DNA from: a bacterium
GTDB taxonomy: Bacteria; Patescibacteriota; Minisyncoccia; Phycocordibacterales; UBA2100
Direction: 5' to 3'
NCBI GenBank assembly: GCA_021781955.1
Contig: JAJXVV010000006.1
Location: 1-47,254 of the forward strand
Length of the DNA stretch: 47,254 bases
The notes below the pieces were generated by a model. It saw nothing but the letters and a program-made list of their open reading frames with translations, ran no database searches and was not told the DNA's origin. The stretch's first letter is position 1, and every line of letters starts with the position of its first letter. Both the position numbers and the translations under genes were made by a program. Below are positions 3,256 to 47,254 of the stretch, piece by piece.

Positions 3256-4398
3256 ATGAAGATAGTCATGACCGGCGGCGGTACGGGCGGGCATTTTTAT
3301 CCGCACATAGCCGTTGCGGAAGCAATCGAAGATATCTGCAAGGAACGCGTGCTGGTGGAGCCGGAGCTTTTTTACGTCGGTCCGAAGCCGTTCGACGCAG
3401 AAGCGCTCCTGGAGCATGACATCATCTACAAGCCCTCGCCAGCGGGGAAGATGCGCCGTTACCCGAGCCTCTTGAACGTGTTCGGAGTCTTTTCCACCGC
3501 CATCGGCATCATTCGCTCGACCGCGCAACTGTTCGGCCTCTATCCCGACGTCGTATTCTCGACCGGCGGTTATGGCGCGTTCCCCACGCTGTACGCCGCG
3601 CGGCTGCTCCGCATCCCGATCATCGTGTACGACGCCGACGCGACGCCGGGCCGCGTTTCGCTCTGGTCATCGAAGTTCGCGCGCTGGATCGCGCTCGCGC
3701 ATCCGGATGCCGCAGCGAAATTCCCGGCCGGCGTTCGGGATCGGATCGCGCGCGTCGGACATCCGATCCGCCGCGAGATACAGAGCGCAACGCGCGAAGG
3801 CGGCTACGAATTCCTCAAACTGGATCCGAGCGCGCCGACCATCTTCATCATGGGCGGCTCGCAAGGGGCACAGGCGATCAACAATGCCGTCCTCGACGCG
3901 CTCCCGACGCTCCTGAAGGAGTTCAACGTCGTGCACCAGGTCGGCACCGCCAACCTGGGAGAGGTGAGCAGCATCGCCTCGGTCACGCTGAGAGATTCTC
4001 GGTACGCGGAACGATACAAGATATTCGGCCTCTTGAACACGCTCGCGATGCGCATGGCCGCGGGCATCTCGAAGCTCATCGTCGCGCGCGCGGGTTCCGG
4101 TACCATTTTTGAGATCGCGAGCTGGGGCATACCGTCCATTCTCGTGCCGATACCCGAAGACGTGTCCCATGATCAGACCAAGAACGCGTTCTCCTACGCT
4201 CGCGGCGGAGCCGCCGTGGTCGTAGAGCAACGCAACTTCACGCCGCACGTGCTGGTCGCCGAAGTGGAGCGCATCGCTGGCGATGACGAGGTGCGCGCGA
4301 AAATGTCGGCGGCCGCCAAAGTGTACGCGCGGCCCGACGCGGCACGAAAAATAGCGACAGCCTTGCTCGACGAGGCGCTCTCGCACGAACCCGTATGA
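3256..4398 (+). CDS. murG: MurG glycosyltransferase (lipid II synthesis)
   Basis: TGGGTGGH, STGGY, GGSQGA, RAGSGT and HDQTKNA motifs. Confidence 0.95.
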   Translation: MKIVMTGGGTGGHFYPHIAVAEAIEDICKERVLVEPELFYVGPKPFDAEALLEHDIIYKPSPAGKMRRYPSLLNVFGVFSTAIGIIRSTAQLFGLYPDVVFSTGGYGAFPTLYAARLLRIPIIVYDADATPGRVSLWSSKFARWIALAHPDAAAKFPAGVRDRIARVGHPIRREIQSATREGGYEFLKLDPSAPTIFIMGGSQGAQAINNAVLDALPTLLKEFNVVHQVGTANLGEVSSIASVTLRDSRYAERYKIFGLLNTLAMRMAAGISKLIVARAGSGTIFEIASWGIPSILVPIPEDVSHDQTKNAFSYARGGAAVVVEQRNFTPHVLVAEVERIAGDDEVRAKMSAAAKVYARPDAARKIATALLDEALSHEPV

Positions 4399-38327: not shown

Positions 38328-39663
38328 AGGGATGTTCGTCGAACGCTTTCGTCCACACGCTCACGAAGCGCGGCAGCCAAGAATTGGCTGCCGCGCTTTT
38401 ATATGCCCAGGTTTTGTACGGCTTTCCCTCTCGTGAGAGGAGTTCCGGGTACGCGCCATGCTTTTCTATTTCCTGCCGAATTGCGCGGAGTATGCGGCGT
38501 GCTTCGTCCGCATATGCGCGCTCGTACGCGCCGAGGTCGAGCAGTCGGTCAGCGAATTCAGTGTTGAACGCGGGCCACACGGTGCGGCCTTGATACGATG
38601 GCGCGGCGACGCGGTGCACCGCGCGACGGCGCGGATTGCGCACCGACATGAGGTACAGTCCCGTTTTTTCATTACGGAACGCTGCCTCGTTGAGCACGAT
38701 ATCCGCGGTCGCACGAAAAAGGCGTCGCTCATGCGTGTCGGACAGATCCCAAAAACCATGCTGGGTATGTGCGAAATCCAACGACACATCGGCTGCAACG
38801 CTCGCAGCCTCCCGTTCAAGCGAGTGGCGGACATAGCCGCGATCGCCGAAGATGTCGAGAATGTCTGCTTTGTAGTGCTTGAGCGTGCGGCCGAGCAGCC
38901 GAGCAACAGTTTGGTCGTCGATGATGCCCAGATCCACGGCGCGCGCGAAGGTCGTCCAGGTGTTGGCATTGGTGACGAAGCGTAGTTTCTCTGCGCGTGT
39001 GTCGGTCGCTGAAGAGCGCGCCTTACTTGCGTCACACAACAGCCGCACGCGCTTCCCGAGCTTCACCCGTTCCAAACCACCTGCCAACTGTGTGAGTGCG
39101 GTGCGCAGATCGTTCCCGTACTCCGTGCGAGATTCCTGGCCAACAGCGCGCGCACGCGCGTAGACGTCCTCATACGCTGAACCTGCCGGCGCTTCGATGA
39201 GCTGGTCGAGCGCCGCGATGCTGCCGAGCAGCGAATCCGAAGGCGGCGAGAAATAATTCGCCCCCAGCATGCGCCGTTTTGTGAGCGGCACGAGCGTCGT
39301 CGTCACGTTGCCGCTCCGCACGCTTTCGAGCACGAGCCGCGCGCTGCGCTCCATAAGCACCACGCGCGCCTCGGCATCTTCTTCACTCACGATGGTGGCC
39401 GGATCGAGGAGCGCCGGATAGAACCAGGCGAAATTGCGCGGATAGTACGCGCGCGCATGAGGGGCGCCCGTCACGATGAACGGCAATTCTAGCGAAAAAG
39501 CAGAAGCGACTGCATGACGATAAATCGTGCTGAAGTCCCTGCGGCGCACGCGCGAGCGCGTGCGCCGCAGCCGGTCGCTCGCGAAATTATACATTTGTAT
39601 CGCGTTGGCAATGCTCTGCGCGAGCCTACCCGAGTAGACCCGCACCTGTCGTTTTGAGTTCAT
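38311..39663 (-). CDS. Putative six-hairpin glycoside hydrolase (glycogen-debranching/invertase-like)
   Basis: TGAPH..YYPRNF, YQGRTVWP and YPELL..GKPY motifs resemble (alpha/alpha)6 glycosidases; assignment is tentative. Confidence 0.55.
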   Translation of the reverse strand: MNSKRQVRVYSGRLAQSIANAIQMYNFASDRLRRTRSRVRRRDFSTIYRHAVASAFSLELPFIVTGAPHARAYYPRNFAWFYPALLDPATIVSEEDAEARVVLMERSARLVLESVRSGNVTTTLVPLTKRRMLGANYFSPPSDSLLGSIAALDQLIEAPAGSAYEDVYARARAVGQESRTEYGNDLRTALTQLAGGLERVKLGKRVRLLCDASKARSSATDTRAEKLRFVTNANTWTTFARAVDLGIIDDQTVARLLGRTLKHYKADILDIFGDRGYVRHSLEREAASVAADVSLDFAHTQHGFWDLSDTHERRLFRATADIVLNEAAFRNEKTGLYLMSVRNPRRRAVHRVAAPSYQGRTVWPAFNTEFADRLLDLGAYERAYADEARRILRAIRQEIEKHGAYPELLSREGKPYKTWAYKSAAANSWLPRFVSVWTKAFDEHPFNPTR

Positions 39664-39674
39664 AAAGTAACCAG

Positions 39675-39745
39675 TGGACCTACGGGGAGTCGGACCCCGA
39701 CCTCGTCCATGCCATGGACGCGTTCTACCGCTGAACTATAGGCCC
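39675..39745 (-). tRNA. tRNA-Ala(GGC)
   Basis: Acceptor GGGCCTA/TAGGTCC with G3:U70; anticodon cgtcc-atGGCat-ggacg; T-loop reads TCCGACT. Confidence 0.92.
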
Positions 39746-39820
39746 AAGTGAAGAACAATGCGGAAGCTCGCTCGCATTTTTCCCGAACGCCAGGTCTACA
39801 TGGCTTCCGCATATAGGCCC
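39746..39820 (-). ncRNA. 75-nt structured leader of tRNA-Ala(GGC), copy A
   Basis: 62/75 ungapped identity with 45261-45335; TAGTAT -10 box 10 nt upstream. Confidence 0.65.
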
Positions 39821-39861
39821 GAATTCATGAATACTAGCAAAAAGTGATAGGATGAGCCATC

Positions 39862-39933
39862 CCCCGCGTCGTTCAATGGATAGGACGCAAGCTTCCGGAG
39901 CTTGTAATGTGGGTTCGATTCCTGCCGCGGGGA
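39862..39933 (+). tRNA. tRNA-Arg(CCG)
   Basis: Acceptor CCCCGCG/CGCGGGG; anticodon caagc-ttCCGga-gcttg; abuts the prs stop codon. Confidence 0.95.
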
Positions 39934-40890
39934 CTAATCGGTTTCGAACAATTCGCTCAACGATTCGTCGCTCTCCAAACGGCGGATGGCCTCAGCGAAA
40001 AGCTCGCCGACCGAGATAACTTCGATCTTATCCGCAAGCGTGCGGCCGGTCGAGACGGAATCGGTGATGAAAAGCTTCTTGATAGCGGACTTCTGCACGG
40101 TCTCGACGGCAGCGCCGGAGAGGACGCCGTGCGTCGCGGTCGCGTAGATCTCGCGCGCGCCGCTCTCGACGAGGAGATCAGCGGCGCGGGAAAGCGTGCC
40201 GCAGGTGTCGGCCATGTCATCGGTGATAAGTGCGACCTTGCCTTTCACGTCGCCGACGAGCTTCATGTGCGCAACCTGGTTCGGGATGTCGCGCTCCTTA
40301 TGGATGATGGCGAGCTCGCCCTCTCTCATGAGCCGCTTGCCATAGGATTGCGCGCGCACCACGCCGCCCGCATCGGGAGAGACGACCACAAGCTCGTCCC
40401 GCGAGAGCGCGTCCTTGAAGAGCTCCTTGAAATGCGGGACGAAGACGCGGCGCGCGTAGAGGTTGTCGACGATGGTCTTGCGGAAAAAGCCGCCGATGGC
40501 GTCGTTGTGGAGGTCGAGCGTGAGCAGGCGATCGGCGCCCATGCTCTCGAGCATGGTGGCGAAAACGCGCGCCGAGATCGGTTCGCGGGATTTCGTCTTA
40601 CGGTCCTGGCGCGAGTATCCGAAGTACGGCATGACGACCGTGATTTCGTGCGCGGAGGCGCGCCGAGCCGCGTCGAGCGCCAAAAGCAGCCGCACCCAAT
40701 TCTCAGCGGGCGGATTGGTCGATTGCACGAGGAACACGTGTTTGCCGCGCAGATTCTCTAGGAACTGAACCTGCTGCTCTCCGTCGGAGAAGGCGCGACA
40801 TTTGACGGCGCCGAGCGGAACATTCAAATTCTCGGAAATCTTCTGCGCCAATCCGTCGTTGCTGCCGAGACTGAAGAGCTTGTACTCCAT
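39934..40890 (-). CDS. prs: Ribose-phosphate pyrophosphokinase
   Basis: FSDGE, PYFGYSRQDRK, DLH, VSPDAGG and DDMADTCGT motifs. Confidence 0.97.
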   Translation of the reverse strand: MEYKLFSLGSNDGLAQKISENLNVPLGAVKCRAFSDGEQQVQFLENLRGKHVFLVQSTNPPAENWVRLLLALDAARRASAHEITVVMPYFGYSRQDRKTKSREPISARVFATMLESMGADRLLTLDLHNDAIGGFFRKTIVDNLYARRVFVPHFKELFKDALSRDELVVVSPDAGGVVRAQSYGKRLMREGELAIIHKERDIPNQVAHMKLVGDVKGKVALITDDMADTCGTLSRAADLLVESGAREIYATATHGVLSGAAVETVQKSAIKKLFITDSVSTGRTLADKIEVISVGELFAEAIRRLESDESLSELFETD

Positions 40891-40915
40891 TGAGAGCCTA
40901 GTATAGCAGATGATT

Positions 40916-40986
40916 TCGGGATGCCGAGAATCGAACTCGGGCTACAAGCACCCCATGCTTGCGTACTACCACTATACGACATCCCG
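40916..40986 (-). tRNA. tRNA-Pro(GGG)
   Basis: Acceptor CGGGATG/CATCCCG; anticodon caagc-atGGGgt-gcttg. Confidence 0.93.
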
Positions 40987-41014
40987 TTCTGGTCCGATGC
41001 GATCAGGTCCTGTT

Positions 41015-41085
41015 TCGGGCCGCCGGGAATCGAACCCGGTCTTTACGCACCCGAAGCGCACGTACTACCGGTATACTACGGCCCG
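41015..41085 (-). tRNA. tRNA-Pro(CGG)
   Basis: Acceptor CGGGCCG/CGGCCCG; anticodon tgcgc-ttCGGgt-gcgta. Confidence 0.93.
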
Positions 41086-41147
41086 AAACAGAACCCCATC
41101 CATCCGTGACATATATGTATACCATGCCGCCAGCCTATTCCCCAGCA

Positions 41148-41183
41148 TAAAAAAGCGACCCCGAGGCTTGGGCCTGGGGTCGC
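41148..41183 (-). terminator. Intrinsic terminator downstream of the small Cys-rich gene
   Basis: gcgacccc..aggc/gcct.ggggtcgc hairpin with an A-run on the plus-strand left side (T-run on minus). Confidence 0.75.
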
Positions 41184-41237
41184 GAAGTAAGTGTCCTGCG
41201 TCTATCGCGCAGTGTTTTAGAATTCGATCACCTCCCT

Positions 41238-41519
41238 TCACGCATGACCGCATTCCGCGTCATTGTCGAGGAAACGCAGGACGCAGGCATTACTGCAGAA
41301 CACCAGCATTCCGTAAATGTCGGCGCCATTGCACTTGTAAAGCGTCGGGAACGCGCGCCCGTTCTTCAGCCTGAAGCGAGTGCCGCAAGCTGGACACGTG
41401 TGCGCTTGTTCCGGGCTTACGTGGTGGTCTTCAGCGAAGAATCCTCCGTTCATCGGATATGGTGAGCCGATAGGGATAGTCGGCTGCGGGTCAAGCATCG
41501 GGATCATATCGCCCTCCAT
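41238..41519 (-). CDS. Small Cys-rich putative zinc-finger protein
   Basis: CPACG..FCSNAC treble-clef-like ligands; followed by a terminator. Confidence 0.55.
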   Translation of the reverse strand: MEGDMIPMLDPQPTIPIGSPYPMNGGFFAEDHHVSPEQAHTCPACGTRFRLKNGRAFPTLYKCNGADIYGMLVFCSNACVLRFLDNDAECGHA

Positions 41520-41681
41520 CGTTCAAGAGACACCTTGTGGAAGGATTCGTATCCGAGAGATAAACGCCAATGTCAGTCTTTGCCAGGACACCTCCTATGC
41601 AATTATCAGAGAACTTGCTCATCCTACACCTATCCGAGCGATTTGCATCATCGTTCGCCAAACTTGTGGACAAGCACCGCT

Positions 41682-41732
41682 GTGAGTCTCTACCAGTCCG
41701 CTCGCACCTATTTTAGCAGAAAACAGGGGTAA
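41682..41732 (+). other. Detached native C-terminal tail of LSR1 (left att junction)
   Basis: gtg agt ctc tac cag tcc gct cgc acc tat ttt agc aga aaa cag ggg taa; aligns without gaps to the tail at 47131-47184. Confidence 0.75.
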
Positions 41733-42049
41733 ATACCCCTTCATTCGGGGGTGGTTTACCCCATCATGCACCCCATCATGCGGTACCCCTCGGCATGATG
41801 GGGTAGCTCACCTCGATATTGGCTTTAATGCTAGGCTTTTCGGTGGTCGCTCTCAAAAATCCTAAGTCCTACTTCACTCCGCTCCAGCCCCTTGCTGTCG
41901 CTCCGTGAAGGGCGGCCACGGAGTACCGTGTCCGCCCCTCCGCAATTCCGAGTCTGTGCCTCGGCCTTCTCCTTCCGTCCCGCAGTTTCTTTTTTGTTGG
42001 GGGGGTTAGAACCACGAGAAAAAAGGATGGGACGGGAAGGGGGAAGGCC
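41725..42049. repeat. Origin-like repeat and hairpin region of element 1
   Basis: accccatcatgc tandem at 41758-41769 and 41770-41781, inverted at 41793-41804; IR at 41725-41740; long imperfect hairpin at 41963-42049. Confidence 0.7.
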
Positions 42050-42092
42050 TCGTTTCCGGGGGTCGTAAGTGGGTATAATCTACCTAATAGCT

Positions 42093-42929
42093 ATGCCTGA
42101 ACCGAGACGAAAAAAGTTCGAAAGAGGCCATGCCAACGACCCCCTACAATTGACTCCCCGCGATATATCCATACTACGGGATGTTGCCGAGTACCGCTTT
42201 CTGAACTCGGAGCAGCTTTTAGCACTCCACCCCGGCGGAGAGCGCAATCTCAAACAGCGCTTGCACCTGCTATACCGCCACGGACATCTCGACCGCCCCG
42301 ACGTTCAGAAAAGGGCCTTGCTCGCTTCTTCCCACATCGTCTATGCTCTCGACCGAAGGGGCGCGGAGGTTTTGGGCAAGGACGCGCAGGAGCGCGAAGG
42401 ACTGTTTCGCCGCATCCGCGAGCTTGAGCATACCTCGCCGCTCATCGCCCACGCGTTGATGATTTCACAATTCAGAGTGTGTCTTACGCTCGCCCTTAAA
42501 AGTCGTCCGAGCGTGAAGCTGATACGCTGGACGCAGGGCAACGACTTGAAAGTTCTGTTGCGGAGGCGCGGCGAAAATCCATCGCTCGTGCCGGACGCCT
42601 TTTTCATATTGGAAACGTCCGAGTTCAACTATCCGTGTTTTCTCGAAGCGGATCGCGGGACGATGACGCAGGAACGATACGTGAACAAGCTCCGTATGTA
42701 CTGGCAATACTGGCGCGAGGAAGGTTTCAGCAGGTCGCTCGGCATTACCCATTTCCGTGTCCTCACGATTACTCCCAACGAGAAGCGAGCGGAGAATCTT
42801 TGCCTAGCGGCCAAAGAAGCCGACGCCCGCAAACAAGGCAGCGGCATGTTCCTGTTCATGTCCGAGACGGCATACGGCACGACGAGGCCGGATGCGATCG
42901 TGCAGGCCGCGTGGAAGTGCCCGAAGTGA
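42093..42929 (+). CDS. Replication-relaxation family protein (PF13814-like)
   Basis: LTPRD..IL..V..YRFL..EQL wHTH; PDA..FLEADRGTM..KL..Y PD-(D/E)xK-like motifs; TATAAT upstream. Confidence 0.82.
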   Translation: MPEPRRKKFERGHANDPLQLTPRDISILRDVAEYRFLNSEQLLALHPGGERNLKQRLHLLYRHGHLDRPDVQKRALLASSHIVYALDRRGAEVLGKDAQEREGLFRRIRELEHTSPLIAHALMISQFRVCLTLALKSRPSVKLIRWTQGNDLKVLLRRRGENPSLVPDAFFILETSEFNYPCFLEADRGTMTQERYVNKLRMYWQYWREEGFSRSLGITHFRVLTITPNEKRAENLCLAAKEADARKQGSGMFLFMSETAYGTTRPDAIVQAAWKCPK

Positions 42930-43043
42930 TACTGTAAAGTGATATGACCGAGACCGATGACGAGAGAAAATTAAGGGAAGAGAGGGAAAGCCAAGCGTTA
43001 CAAACCCTTGAGGGGTTATCGGTGATGACGCTATACTGTCGAT

Positions 43044-44594
43044 ATGCCCCTCTACTTCCTCTACGCCCGCAAGTCCACCGACACCGAGGACATGCAAGTC
43101 CTCTCTATCGAAAGCCAGCTCGCCGAGCTGCGCGAGATCGCCAAGCGTGAGGGCATCGAGATCGGGCGTGAGTTCGTCGAGAAGCAGTCAGCCAAGAGAC
43201 CCGGCCGCCCAGTCTTCAACGAGATGCTCTCCCGTATCGAGAGGGGCGAAGCGTCCGGAATCCTATGCTGGAAGATAGACCGCCTCTCGCGCAATCCGGT
43301 GGACAGCGGCCGCGTGAGCTGGCTCCTGCAGCAGGGAACCATACAGAGCATCACGACCCATGAGCGCACCTTCTGTCCGACAGATAACGTGCTCGTGATG
43401 TCCGTCGAGTTCGGAATGGCCAATGAGTACGTGCGGCAGCTTGCCGCCAACACTTCGCGCGGATTGAGAGCGAAGGCGCGTCTCGGCCACTACCCCTGCA
43501 ACGCTCCCGTCGGATACCTCAACAATCCGCGCACCAAGACCATCGTCGTGGACAAACGCAGAGCGTCCATTGTCCGCGCCGCCTTCGAGCTGTATGCCGA
43601 GAACAAGTCCCGCCTCGAAGACGTGAGCCGCTTCCTCTTCGAGAGCGGCATCAGGACGAATGCGGGAAGGCGGCTCGGGAACGGCGGCAAGCCGCTCACC
43701 CGAGACCAGATCAAGCGCCTCCTCTCCAATCCCTTCTATTACGGCCACTTCCGCTTCAAGGGAGAGATGTACGAAGGCAGGCATGCGCCCATCGTCGAAA
43801 AGTCCCTTTTCGACCAGGTGCAGAAGGTATTGCAGCTGCGCGGCAGGCCGCACAAGGAACCTAAAAACAACGCACAGGCGCTCTGCGGACTGCTCCGCTG
43901 CGGCGAGTGCGGGATGAGCGTCACCGCCGAGGTGAAGTTCAAATATCAGAAGAACGGCAACGTCCACCGCTACGTCTATTACCGCTGTACCAAGAAGAAA
44001 GGTTCCTGTTCCCAGCCCCACATCCGCGAAGAGCGTCTCGTCTTGCAGGTGAACGAGCTTCTCGAAGAGTTCACTATGTCCAAGACGTGCGCCGACGAGC
44101 TGCTCCGGCTCTCGGCGGAGGACGAGAAGGAGGCTGCTGCTGCCGCTGTCTCCGCCATCCAAGCCCTGCGGGCGGAGATCGAGGAGAAGAGCGAGAAGCT
44201 CGCCCGCCTTACCGACCTCTACGTTGAGCAGGATATAGCACGGCATGACTATCTCGAAAGGAAGGCCGCCCTCATGTCCGACAAGAGGTCGGAAGAGGAG
44301 CAGATCGTCAAACTTGAACGAGACGCCGCTTCATGGCTCGAACCTCTGCGCAACTGGATATCCGAGGCTCAAACGCTGGACGAAATACGAAAAAACAGCG
44401 ACCTCCCCTCCAAAAAATCCTCCCTCCAAAAAATCTCAGGATCGAACCCGTCCTTAAGAGACCGTCTTATCGAATTTAATCCCATCCCGCCATACGCTTC
44501 GCTCCGCGAAGCGCGTCAAAATTTCTCTGTAAATCAGTCCTGTATTTTATGGGTGCACCCTATAGGATTCGAACCTATGACCTTTCGAATGTGA
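43044..44594 (+). CDS. Large serine recombinase LSR1; last 13 aa encoded by the tRNA-Val antisense strand
   Basis: YARKS catalytic Ser, GRPVF, DRLSRN, PVGY recombinase domain, CGECG..YYRC zinc ribbon, coiled coil; ends WVHPIGFEPMTFRM. Confidence 0.93.
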   Translation: MPLYFLYARKSTDTEDMQVLSIESQLAELREIAKREGIEIGREFVEKQSAKRPGRPVFNEMLSRIERGEASGILCWKIDRLSRNPVDSGRVSWLLQQGTIQSITTHERTFCPTDNVLVMSVEFGMANEYVRQLAANTSRGLRAKARLGHYPCNAPVGYLNNPRTKTIVVDKRRASIVRAAFELYAENKSRLEDVSRFLFESGIRTNAGRRLGNGGKPLTRDQIKRLLSNPFYYGHFRFKGEMYEGRHAPIVEKSLFDQVQKVLQLRGRPHKEPKNNAQALCGLLRCGECGMSVTAEVKFKYQKNGNVHRYVYYRCTKKKGSCSQPHIREERLVLQVNELLEEFTMSKTCADELLRLSAEDEKEAAAAAVSAIQALRAEIEEKSEKLARLTDLYVEQDIARHDYLERKAALMSDKRSEEEQIVKLERDAASWLEPLRNWISEAQTLDEIRKNSDLPSKKSSLQKISGSNPSLRDRLIEFNPIPPYASLREARQNFSVNQSCILWVHPIGFEPMTFRM

Positions 44595-44627
44595 ATCGAA
44601 CGCTCTAACCAGCTGAGCTAAGGGTGC
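44554..44627 (-). tRNA. tRNA-Val(CAC)
   Basis: Acceptor GCACCCT/AGGGTGC; anticodon ttcga-ttCACat-tcgaa; GGTTCGAATCC T-arm. Confidence 0.95.
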
Positions 44628-44677
44628 CCTGCCCCGAGAAGATCGAGGGGGTTCGCAAAGGATACTCTATTTCTCGC

Positions 44678-44686
44678 TGTGGATAA
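44678..44686 (-). promoter_or_regulatory. DnaA box between divergent tRNA-Val and tspO
   Basis: TGTGGATAA is a perfect TTATCCACA on the minus strand; function is not established. Confidence 0.45.
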
Positions 44687-44728
44687 AGGGAGTGGCGCGG
44701 ACGAGCGGTATGCATATATGCTAGTGGC

Positions 44729-45199
44729 ATGGACAAGCACCTGCGTACCGCCGCCCCTTTCATCGGCGTTTTCGCGGCAGGCATCGTCGGCATGCTCTTC
44801 GTCGGACAGAGCGTCGGCATCTGGTATGCCAACCTCAACCTGCCCCCTTTCACGCCGCCGACCGTCGCGTTCCCCGTTGTCTGGACCTTCCTCTACCTCA
44901 TCACGGCGACCGCGTGCGCGATCGTCTGGCGCAAAGAGCCGCAGAACGATCACACCGAGGGCTGGGTGCGTTATTTTTTTGTGCAACTTTTCATTAACGC
45001 GGGCTGGGTCATCTTTTTCTTCGGCTTTCACTCGATCACGGTCGCATTCGTCGACAACTTCATACTCGTATTCATCGTGCTCGGGCTGACGGCGAGCGCG
45101 TGGGAAATCGATCGCACCGTCACCTACCTCATGCTCCCCTATTTGCTGTGGGTCGTCTTCGCGCTCTACCTCACGATGGAGATATGGTCTCTGAATTAG
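44729..45199 (+). CDS. tspO: TspO/MBR tryptophan-rich sensory protein
   Basis: WYANLNLPPFTPP..FPVVWTFLY, QL..N..W..FFG and LMLPYLLW..FA motifs. Confidence 0.93.
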   Translation: MDKHLRTAAPFIGVFAAGIVGMLFVGQSVGIWYANLNLPPFTPPTVAFPVVWTFLYLITATACAIVWRKEPQNDHTEGWVRYFFVQLFINAGWVIFFFGFHSITVAFVDNFILVFIVLGLTASAWEIDRTVTYLMLPYLLWVVFALYLTMEIWSLN

Positions 45200-45260
45200 G
45201 TTTTGAGTGTACACTGATCGATTGAGAGAACTCTTTTTGTTTGCTATATTTCTTCAGCAA

Positions 45261-45335
45261 GGGTCTATATACGGAAGTCACATAGACCCGGCGTCCGGAG
45301 AAAATGTAAGCGAGCTTCCGCTTTGTTCCTCACTT
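45261..45335 (+). ncRNA. 75-nt structured leader of tRNA-Ala(CGC), copy B
   Basis: Homologous to the reverse complement of 39746-39820; GGGTCTAT/ATAGACCC stem and CGGAAG/CTTCCG pairing; TATATT -10 box 10 nt upstream. Confidence 0.65.
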
Positions 45336-45409
45336 GGGCCTATAGTAAAGTGGTATTACGCGGCATTCGCATTGCCGAGTCCGGGGTTCGACTCCCCGTA
45401 GGTCCACCA
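45336..45409 (+). tRNA. tRNA-Ala(CGC)
   Basis: Acceptor GGGCCTA/TAGGTCC with G3:U70; anticodon cggca-ttCGCat-tgccg; CCA end. Confidence 0.95.
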
Positions 45410-46903
45410 AATTTGATTTGCCGAAGAAGTTGCCTCGGGGCTTCGCCCCTCGGCATTGGTTTCCGCCAAGAAATTCCAGGGGGTTTTGAAATCCGCCAAA
45501 AGCATTCCCGCCGAAAGTCGGCGGTTCGAGCCGATGGAAACAAGAAAATCTCTCGCCCCCGAGGGATTTTCTTGTTTGGAGAGATTTTCGGCTTGGTTGG
45601 CTTCAGTAATCCAGTTTCGCATGAGTTCGAGCCAATGATTACCTTTTCGCTCAAAATCCGATAATTTCTCCTCAAATGTTTTCTTTTCCGCCATTAAAAC
45701 ATTCTTTTTCTCTTGATACTCGCCAAGTTCCAACGCCTCGCCAAGATATGCGTCTGTAAGGCGTTCTAGTCGCGTTTTAATGGCGGAAATTTGATCGCGG
45801 AGATTTTGAGCGAAAAGGTCTGATGAGTGGCGGGATTCCTTATTCTCATTTTCCAGTTTTGCTAAAAACTTTTCCCGCCACTCATCGGGCAAAGAAACTT
45901 TTTGACACAGATTTTTCACTTGTTCAGTCAAAACATCTTCCCGCAAAAAGCGATTTTCAGAACATTTGATAGTTTTGCTCTTGTGGGTGCAACGATAGTA
46001 AATAAATTTCAAACCACTTTTCTTTATGTGTCTTTCGGCGGTTATGGCATAGCCACATACCCCACAAGTAGCAAAACCTAAAAACTGAAAATTCTTTGGT
46101 CCTCGCTTTTTGCGGGGCTTCCCATTCTGAACAAGTGCTGTTTGGATTTGGTCAAAAAGTCTCTTTGCAATCATTGGCTTATGCGAACCCACATGCACCT
46201 CGCCACGATATTGAAAATGTCCATAGTAAAAGGGATTTTTCAAAATATGTTCAATACTGGCGAGGTGCAAGGGTTTGCCTGTTTTGCTAACCAAGCCAAG
46301 AGAAAACATTTTGCGCTGAATTGCCGTGAGCGTATATTGTCCCGTAGCAAAAGCCCCTAACGCTTCTTTTACTTTGCCAAAGGTCTTTTTGTCCGGCTCA
46401 ATAGTTCGCAATCTCGGCTCATTGAAATATCCCAAAGGGGCTTTTGCTGAAAGTTCGCCACGGCGTATTTTTTGGCGAATACCACGCAAAATGTTTTCTC
46501 TTAAATTGTCGGTGTAATACTTTGCTTGTCCGAAGGCGACACTCAACATAAATTTTCCTTGGGGTGTCGCCTCGAACCAGAAAGTAGGGAATTTTAGCGA
46601 TTGGATTTTGAGAGTATCAACAAGGTAAATCACACGCCCACCATCAATCGAGTTGCGAGCTAAACGGTCTGGATTCCACGCTAAAATTCCCTGTGCATTG
46701 CCTTTTTCAATTTCGCCAAGCATTTCGTTAAATACTTCACGACCTGGCTCTTTGGCGGTTTTGCTCTCGTAAAATTCTTTTTCAACGAAAAGGTTGTTTT
46801 GCTTGGCGAATTCCCGAAGCTCCGTCAGTTGCGCCTCAATAGACAAAACTTGGCGTTCTTCGTCCTCTGATGATTTACGACAATAAATAAAGTATTTGAT
46901 CAT
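45356..46903 (-). CDS. Large serine recombinase LSR2; last 15-17 aa encoded by the tRNA-Ala antisense strand
   Basis: YCRKSS, PGREVF, DRLARN, PLGY, CGVCG..YYRC and coiled coil; ends QIWWTYGESNPGLGNANAA; visibly AT-richer than host genes. Confidence 0.93.
   Translation of the reverse strand: MIKYFIYCRKSSEDEERQVLSIEAQLTELREFAKQNNLFVEKEFYESKTAKEPGREVFNEMLGEIEKGNAQGILAWNPDRLARNSIDGGRVIYLVDTLKIQSLKFPTFWFEATPQGKFMLSVAFGQAKYYTDNLRENILRGIRQKIRRGELSAKAPLGYFNEPRLRTIEPDKKTFGKVKEALGAFATGQYTLTAIQRKMFSLGLVSKTGKPLHLASIEHILKNPFYYGHFQYRGEVHVGSHKPMIAKRLFDQIQTALVQNGKPRKKRGPKNFQFLGFATCGVCGYAITAERHIKKSGLKFIYYRCTHKSKTIKCSENRFLREDVLTEQVKNLCQKVSLPDEWREKFLAKLENENKESRHSSDLFAQNLRDQISAIKTRLERLTDAYLGEALELGEYQEKKNVLMAEKKTFEEKLSDFERKGNHWLELMRNWITEANQAENLSKQENPSGARDFLVSIGSNRRLSAGMLLADFKTPWNFLAETNAEGRSPEATSSANQIWWTYGESNPGLGNANAA
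45404..45527. repeat. 124-bp perfect inverted repeat, left copy (3' end of LSR2 plus the tRNA CCACCA)
   Basis: Base-by-base reverse complement of 47010-47133. Confidence 0.95.
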
Positions 46904-47009: not shown

Positions 47010-47133
47010 GAACCGCCGACTTTCGGCGGGAATGCTTTTGGCGGATTTCAAAACCCCCTGGAATTTCTTGGCGGAAACCAATGCCGAGGGGCGAAGCCCC
47101 GAGGCAACTTCTTCGGCAAATCAAATTTGGTGG
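47010..47133. repeat. 124-bp perfect inverted repeat, right copy (attP-like, followed by the native tail)
   Basis: Reads NRRLSAGMLLADFKTPWNFLAETNAEGRSPEATSSANQIWW on plus and continues CLFEKVRTHFAENPQE* to 47184. Confidence 0.95.
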
Positions 47134-47254
47134 TGTTTGTTTGAAAAAGTTAGAACCCATTTTGCGGAGAACCCCCAAGAATGAGGACGCCCCGCCACCG
47201 CCTCGCGGACTCGGCGGACACCAAAGAAAAATGTTCCTTGCTTTTCGGATTTGC

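Follow-up and report, generated by a model that had tools for sequence, protein, structure and literature searches.

The 47,254-bp window analysed here is an entire contig (C1) of a 12-contig, 741-kb metagenome-assembled genome (MAG) from a member of the Patescibacteriota. At 41682-44552 it carries a 2.87-kb element that comprises an orphan protein tail, an iteron-like region, a Replic_Relax gene and the gene of a large serine recombinase (LSR), which we call LSR1, and that abuts the 3′ end of tRNA-Val(cac). The LSR1 gene (43044-44594, + strand; assigned from its open reading frame (ORF) and domains) encodes an integrated isoform of 516 aa and has no stop codon of its own: the antisense of the tRNA gene (44552-44627, − strand; called by ARAGORN) supplies its final 13 codons and a TGA stop, and the protein ends in ...ILWVHPIGFEPMTFRM. 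At the other end of the element, a GTG at 41682 opens a free-standing C-terminal tail, VSLYQSARTYFSRKQG, which runs to a TAA stop (41730-41732, + strand). The second GTG lies 2,871 bp away at 44553-44555 (+ strand), and corresponds on the other strand to C72, A73 and the next base of tRNA-Val. An earlier reading of the letters alone (the sequence-only reading) had described both the missing stop codon and the tail at this spacing, and the ORF and ARAGORN coordinates agree with it. Rejoining across the two triplets would link 503 LSR1 residues, up to a Trp, to 16 tail residues, giving 519 aa (by arithmetic).

These features can be placed as the arms of recombination sites. The GTG at 41682-41684 (+ strand) is the crossover region of attL, the left junction, and its three bases are the only ones common to attR, the junction at the tRNA. 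The orphan tail (41682-41732, + strand), in register with the C-termini of 18 of 120 homologues and with that of the related contig L132, is the P′ arm of the element's own site, attP; the LSR1 coding sequence supplies the P arm with its 3′ end (44493-44552, + strand). The 3′ half of tRNA-Val is the B′ arm of the target, in which the T-loop antisense TCGAACC is found at 44569-44575, 14-20 nt past the GTG, and a T-loop mimic, TCGCACC, occupies 41702-41708 (+ strand) of the P′ arm, 18-24 nt past its GTG. A 3-bp GTG repeat taken alone is no more than chance. The orphan tail is not chance, because a loose tail motif matches only five times in the six frames of the 741-kb genome, and four of these matches are stop-terminated tails tied to LSR elements (41688 and 47137 in the window, the start of contig C6, and C5:45285).

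Between the tail and the Replic_Relax gene is a conserved non-coding region (41733-42068, + strand; delimited by a three-element alignment), which has two direct 12-nt ACCCCATCATGC repeats, an inverted copy of the repeat (hairpin 41750-41812), and blocks invariant in all three elements, one of them of 22 nt. It looks like an origin or a promoter for the Replic_Relax gene, and may be both. That gene (42069-42929, + strand; 286 aa; PF13814, Pfam E 3e-27) is the only one besides LSR1 between the two GTGs. The element has no virion or lysis genes, and a scan of IMG/VR gave two weak relatives.

LSR1 itself has the Recombinase domain (PF07508) and the zinc ribbon with an inserted coiled coil (Zn_ribbon_recom, PF13408) by which large serine recombinases are recognised, together with a Resolvase domain (PF00239, E 2e-21, residues 5-149). 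Alignment of 25 family members shows Y7, R9, K10 and S11 to be invariant, along with four Cys; S11, which falls at the serine of the conserved Y-x-R-x-S motif, is from its position probably the catalytic serine. Long helices are predicted at residues 347-394 and 400-427 in an AlphaFold model. The nearest solved structure is that of the SPbeta integrase (E 7e-14, residues 7-422); residues 423-516, a C-terminal extension of some 90 residues, found no match among solved structures.

Related elements fix the left boundary of the element and show its two ends in their uninterrupted state. Locus L009 has the tail, the repeats and a Replic_Relax protein 77% identical to that of the window, and L064 has the tail, a Replic_Relax gene (60% identical), a 116-aa ORF and then an LSR entering tRNA-Leu. 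When the three are aligned, similarity starts at GTG 41682 and extends via the tail, the repeats and the invariant blocks to the Replic_Relax gene. Ungapped identities anchored at the GTG are 11/60 to its left and 35/51 to its right for L009, and 15/60 and 27/51, respectively, for L064. The 3,566-nt metagenome contig L132 carries an LSR 3′ end (72% to window 44196-44534), a native tail, iteron-like repeats and Replic_Relax (66.5% to 41948-42926) in one unbroken run. The 60 nt preceding its tail match window 44493-44552 at 45/60 positions, versus 16/60 for the attL left flank, and the rejoined LSR1 C-terminus is equal in length to that of L132. Sequences separated by 2.87 kb in the window therefore adjoin in L132, which has the junction predicted for attP in the excised form. 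The sequence-only reading had placed attP inside the 3′ end of the integrase gene with exactly this junction, and L132, L009 and L064 bear it out, the support coming from relatives and not from an excised copy of the element itself. L132 also repeats, in inverted orientation at its far end (3473-3532; 82% over 61 nt), the sequence immediately upstream of the Replic_Relax gene.

The native tail is a regular feature of the family. Among 120 proteins matched by LSR1 residues 300-516, 18 end in [LIV]Y...RT[YH]F plus 4-8 residues (17 found by pattern, one by eye), and they are collinear with rejoined LSR1, as the sequence-only reading had anticipated; ...ILW followed by VSLYQSARTYF... would align without a gap to, for example, ...FPWVPLYALARTYFEQNI. 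A rough pattern assigns tRNA-antisense-like T-arm tails (GFEP, GIEP, GLEP and so on) to 85 of the 120, and the other 17 are cut or frameshifted. We see the same at the level of genomes. A scan of reference genomes, one per species, gave at least 582 relatives among at least 600 pattern-matching stretches, from which the best 80 loci were kept; these are mostly in Patescibacteria MAGs, with a few labelled otherwise. The LSR ORF is cut by a contig end in 13 and complete in 67, and 57 of the 67 enter a tRNA or a T-loop remnant. In 49 the ORF finishes inside a tRNA gene predicted on the other strand, spanning 13 amino-acid specificities (Glu 9; Leu, Val and Thr 7 each; Gly 5; Gln 4; Tyr, Ile and Lys 2 each; Arg, Phe, Ala and Cys 1 each), and in eight there is the T-loop antisense motif alone. 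Nine have neither, and one (L033) ends in a native tail. At the level of sequence, LSR 3′ ends running into antisense tRNA are thus an established pattern of the family. The Replic_Relax gene is a less constant companion: it is carried by only 2 of the best 80 LSR loci, and the pairing is evidently not obligatory, because an LSR match on either strand is present in only 7 of the 64 loci obtained by a metagenome scan with a Replic_Relax alignment.

How one family can use so many targets is suggested by the way the two arms match. Read as DNA, the R-T-Y/H-F codons of the native tail reproduce the T-loop antisense TCGAACC exactly or nearly so, and in 58 distinct tails their third positions carry 1.66, 0.93, 1.38 and 1.18 bits, respectively; the conserved codons are probably largely a DNA signal. 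In the LSR1 P′ arm the T-loop motif is 4 nt farther from the crossover than in the tRNA arm. We compared P′ and tRNA arms at successive shifts for LSR1, for LSR2 (a second recombinase of the window) and for 21 further loci, 23 site pairs in all once the misaligned L062 and L072 had been dropped. The match peaks at an outward shift of 4 nt, with 179/368 positions, compared to at most 115/368 at the other shifts from -6 to +12, and 1000 shuffles reached a fraction of 0.32 at the highest; since the rows are related, non-independent elements, the result is not a probability. The excerpted text of a study of a Listeria integrase describes a zinc-ribbon motif shifted by 5 bp between attP and attB (PMC3783163). 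Large serine recombinases typically have attP and attB sites with only a few bases in common around a 2-bp crossover. The sites here share 3 bp for LSR1 and 6 bp for LSR2, and have an offset of +4 where about 5 bp is typical; they would thus be of the canonical LSR kind, and the motif that is recognised would be the tRNA T-loop. That one family uses at least 13 tRNA species would then be because the T-loop antisense is the recognised half-site.

Unoccupied tRNA-Val sites are available for comparison. In the same genus, the gene belongs to a cluster of tRNA-Val(cac), tRNA-Pro(cgg), tRNA-Pro(ggg), TspO and tRNA-Ala(cgc). Loci from 27 relatives were examined and tRNA-Val(cac) is present in 11; in 10 of these 11, tRNA-Pro follows it after 0-239 nt. 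The stretch 41685-41732 therefore does not stand beside tRNA-Val in element-free relatives, in line with the sequence-only reading, although the tail motif itself was not scanned for there. A tblastn search found no LSR gene in the same-genus tRNA-Val loci, giving short matches in L096 and L104 only, of which that in L096 falls on the tRNA-Val antisense itself. In unoccupied loci the tRNA gene ends ...GGTGCAC, and AGCG comes next in L091 and L094; read in the sense of the tRNA, the left flank of the window has CAC and then AGCG, and in both cases a small hairpin and a T run come next (by eye). The sequence-only reading also held that recombination restores an intact tRNA-Val. The gene body is, however, complete in the integrated state too, and as the crossover falls at C72, A73 and the next base, excision would alter only the 3′ trailer; CCA is not encoded in most tRNAs of this genome. 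Across the loci L088-L100 and the window (39600-45409), the order and strand of the genes in the cluster vary between species.

From these comparisons, which establish the anatomy of the element, its boundaries, the family-wide pattern and the motif offset, we read the locus as follows, and give this reading a probability of roughly 85%: the LSR1 element, which is plasmid-like, integrated at tRNA-Val via an attP in the last 16 codons of its own recombinase gene, and in doing so swapped the tail of the enzyme. In this model attP would straddle the final 16 codons, with the coding sequence up to ...ILW-V as the P arm and the native tail as P′, while attB would consist of the 3′ half of the tRNA gene (B′) and the spacer downstream of it (B). 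Recombination of attP with attB would join the LSR body to the antisense tRNA and strand the native tail at the far end. The free form, presumably a circle, would encode the 519-aa protein and the integrated form the 516-aa one. The copy in the window may still be mobile.

Many relatives are more elaborate. In 58 of the 80 loci the LSR 3′ end is repeated in inverted orientation upstream of the LSR, at 66 nt to about 9 kb from the LSR start; 13 loci have none and nine could not be judged. Where contigs are long enough, the inverted copy continues into the native tail, and in 11 loci the tail occurs a second time 2-7 kb further upstream, oriented like the LSR and preceded by host sequence. Once integrated, such an element thus reads host, P′, cargo, inverted P′-P, LSR, P and tRNA. 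Examples with an inverted second attP among loci L006-L085 are L011:6077-11554 and L075:5139-11551. The inverted arms are real duplicates, because their identities are 87-100%. The cargo is accessory, including M23 peptidase with CBM96, DUF2207, LemA and RDD proteins, a short-chain dehydrogenase with a 2-hydroxyacid dehydrogenase, and a 1,328-aa GNAT protein. The excised form of these relatives would have two inverted attP sites. The LSR1 element is without the inverted copy. Nested integration, host-DNA capture, duplication by fold-back, autoregulation and the use of one attP or the other were considered as accounts of the inverted copy, and none was supported. No native-tailed LSR facing away from a tRNA was noticed in the 80 per-locus listings, in which no dedicated count was made. 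Contigs often stop about 100 nt past the inverted tail, which would explain many MAG contig breaks; they break beside LSR genes because the att arms are repeated.

One such element, that of LSR2, is the neighbour of LSR1 in the window. The LSR2 gene (45356-46903, − strand) ends in tRNA-Ala(cgc) (45336-45409, + strand) and is bounded by perfect 124-nt inverted arms (45404-45527 and 47010-47133). The second arm begins 107 nt upstream of the LSR2 start and is continuous with a native tail, CLFEKVRTHFAENPQE (47134-47184, + strand). The end of C1 and the reversed start of contig C6 (C6:1-1262) have a terminal stretch of about 127 nt in common (by eye), and on C6 the native tail is preceded by host sequence, making this the attL of the LSR2 element; the relative L098 has the orthologue of the first C6 gene (73% identical) beside its tRNA-Ala. 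The tail arm is thus common to both contig ends, so the LSR2 element bridges C1 and C6, and the cargo between them is missing from the bin. Thus attR, attL and an intact attP copy of LSR2 are all found in the same genome, with the common core TGGTGG, corresponding to the terminal CCACCA of tRNA-Ala. In the sequencing runs described below, unitigs bridge 47009/47010 and the depth of the arms is about twice that of the LSR2 body, so the inverted copy is present in the reads; 31-mers are blind to flipping between the perfect arms. Each arm also contains, 3 nt in from its inner end, a 17-nt palindrome able to form a hairpin (7-bp stem, 3-nt loop; 47013-47029 and 45508-45524), which may be a remnant of the event that generated the inverted duplication.

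At least five LSR-related loci are found in the 741-kb genome. A third LSR (C10:59012-60760), 33% identical to LSR1, runs into tRNA-Gln, and no tail-like ORF or inverted arm was found within 11 kb of it. An LSR fragment (C8:63997-64623) lies 85 nt from tRNA-Trp. At C5:45285-45600 there is a decayed element, with a native-type tail (…LYAVLRTYFSKNQG), iteron-like repeats, an LSR 3′-end fragment and a tRNA-like remnant in which no tRNA was called.

Several observations weigh against the reading of LSR1 as an integrated, still mobile element, or suit other accounts of the locus. Its attL and attR share only 3 bp, and the position of the crossover rests on homology, not on a repeat; the shift test, as noted, draws on related elements; no candidate directionality factor was found in the two-gene element; and the native-tail isoform of LSR1 itself is absent from the protein collection that held the homologues. 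With the element subtracted, 595 nt (41087-41681) separate tRNA-Val from tRNA-Pro, compared to 0-239 nt in relatives, and this spacer contains a 93-aa ORF (41238-41519, − strand) that matches no Pfam family and was not found in 40 relatives, and so offers no anchor for synteny. The left end could on these grounds lie elsewhere, for example at tRNA-Pro (41087), with the tail-like ORF at 41682 internal to a larger element, and a contig of a co-occurring organism does join 41086 to 44553 with 28 other letters between. We had considered that joint as an empty site and rejected it: it rests on 30-50 letters of tRNA similarity and belongs to the tRNA-Pro/tRNA-Val cluster of that other organism. The homology with L009, L064 and L132 begins at the GTG and no further left, the CAC-AGCG flank resembles the unoccupied sites of L091 and L094, and we regard a different left end as quite improbable; the spacer may instead be the scar of an older insertion to the left of the element. 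It is scarcely credible that the locus is an artefact in which a plasmid contig was chimerically joined to a tRNA locus. The genome is a MAG, and other contig ends in it do fall at LSR sites. However, in Logan contigs of four runs (X1-X4) from one study, possibly the source samples, unitigs are unbroken across 41682 in all four and across 44553 in X1 and X2 (X3 and X4 break inside tRNA-Val), and the same fusion recurs in 57 of the 67 complete relatives, which come from a wide range of studies and assemblers. These unbroken unitigs also speak against mobility. The contigs of the four runs contain no 41682/44553 circle joint, no empty site and no loose end at either position, and the depth of the element equals that of its flanks; as contigs lose rare variants, the missing excised form is weak evidence. 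Although the gene and conserved iteron-like repeats of a Replic_Relax element are present, no terminal-overlap (circular) contig was found in 23 whole contigs or the 64 metagenome loci, and contigs of 2.6-3.5 kb, considered as circles, were rejected as pieces bounded by att arms. The copy may then be a fixed relic, its tail and fused LSR1 the fossils of one old integration. This would suit the LSR1 90% protein cluster, which consists of one sequence on seven contigs, and the decayed C5 element and C8 fragment in the same genome. The full-length LSR1 and Replic_Relax genes, which keep the family-invariant residues, and the intact tail ORF and T-loop mimic argue the other way, and we hold the relic to be possible but not probable.

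Whether the tail swap matters to the enzyme is a separate question. AlphaFold2 models were made for a native-tailed homologue (P0009, 50-row alignment) and for the integrated form of LSR1 (25-row alignment). The P0009 model has a mean predicted local distance difference test (pLDDT) score of 87, and its C-terminal region comprises helices at 429-462, a hairpin at 466-475, a helix at 481-490 and a terminal helix at 496-513, which is the native tail (pLDDT 72-83); in integrated LSR1, residues 497-516 have pLDDT below 50. This contrast between a predicted terminal helix that closes the C-terminal fold and a disordered tRNA-coded tail is suggestive only, since confidence tracks alignment columns and the contrast is partly due to the make-up of the alignments. 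Protein conservation does reach near the junction, in the blocks QKIFGSNL and PPYASLREA; like the predicted helix, this is a point for function that is not decisive. The chances are about even that the swap is a neutral by-product, with a gene that happens to overlap attP, last 16 residues that are dispensable, and isoforms that behave alike. The strongly conserved third positions that spell the T-loop mimic fit this account, and the DNA site may account for most of the amino-acid conservation in the tail. So too do the tRNA-coded tails of the 57 integrated relatives, which vary in length and sequence while their genes remain open. That the swap alters activity is a tentative proposal, and one we would not expect to hold. 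An LSR catalyses recombination of attP with attB, and excision requires a directionality factor. In the most ambitious form of the proposal, the tail swap would itself be the directionality switch: the terminal helix of the free form would permit only integration of attP into the tRNA, and the helix-less, tRNA-tailed enzyme could run excision from attL and attR, or would be the only form able to. The inverted attP of most members would give a circle of two isomers, like that of the 2-micron plasmid, or a toggling of tails, and T-loop-aimed integrases would target the tRNA genes of almost any organism, the T-loop and 3′ end being near-universal. We think this combination unlikely as a whole.

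On the reading of LSR1 as an integrated element that carries attP in its own last codons, the locus belongs to a large natural family of serine integrases aimed at tRNA 3′ ends, with half of attP in the final codons of the enzyme. The enzyme would change with the state of the element, and the T-loop would be reused as a recognition motif with the textbook offset between attP and attB. Serine integrases are valued because a separate factor sets their direction, and the family raises the question of a serine integrase that encodes its own directionality. For bacteria of the Candidate Phyla Radiation (CPR), which are very hard to manipulate, it offers a first tangible group of small integrative elements, which are hence candidate vectors. 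It also bears on annotation: the C-termini of hundreds of database 'recombinases' are translated antisense tRNA. In the literature searched, with subscription journals and supplements outside its scope, nothing was found on tRNA-targeting serine recombinases in CPR or on an attP inside a serine integrase gene.

With the Listeria A118/LI, SPbeta SprA, phiC31 and Bxb1 integrases, LSR1 shares its Resolvase, Recombinase and zinc-ribbon/coiled-coil architecture, and with canonical phage serine integrases in general it shares short att sites whose identity block is very small. To our knowledge, classic serine integrases have attP outside the integrase gene. LSR1 differs from them in carrying attP within its own last 16 codons, with a product that changes on integration, and in its C-terminal extension of about 90 residues without a match in solved structures; its family targets tRNA 3′ ends of many specificities, which are normally targets of tyrosine integrases, and its carrier is a non-phage element of 2.9 kb with no evident directionality factor. 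The inverted-attP relatives recall the yeast 2-micron plasmid, in which the FLP/FRT recombinase sites lie in two large inverted repeats that divide the plasmid into two unique segments: in both, a small element has its site in inverted repeats. By analogy only, then, since the 2-micron enzyme is a tyrosine recombinase in a eukaryote and the LSR1 element is without the inverted copy. In mycobacteriophage BPs, attP reportedly lies in the 3′ end of the repressor gene, the C-terminus of which differs between integrated and free forms, with a regulatory consequence. LSR1 appears similar in having attP in a gene 3′ end and a C-terminus that depends on state, but in BPs the protein affected is a repressor served by a tyrosine integrase, where here it would be the recombinase itself. 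Genomic islands that target tRNA genes with tyrosine integrases are described, in the excerpted text of PMC12884075, as inserting at the tRNA 3′ end with element sequence that keeps the tRNA whole; as far as that text goes, they differ from LSR1 and LSR2 in recombinase superfamily and in an identity block of tens of bp, compared to 3-6 bp here. There is also a likeness to the SSV-type 'suicidal' integrases of archaea, which, according to Badel et al. (2020, PMC7253208), have the recombination site inside the ORF, often target tRNA genes, and are rearranged by integration. On that account, however, they are tyrosine recombinases that integration splits into two inactive pseudogenes, whereas LSR1 has serine recombinase domains only, keeps 503 of its 519 residues, and stays open at 516 aa.

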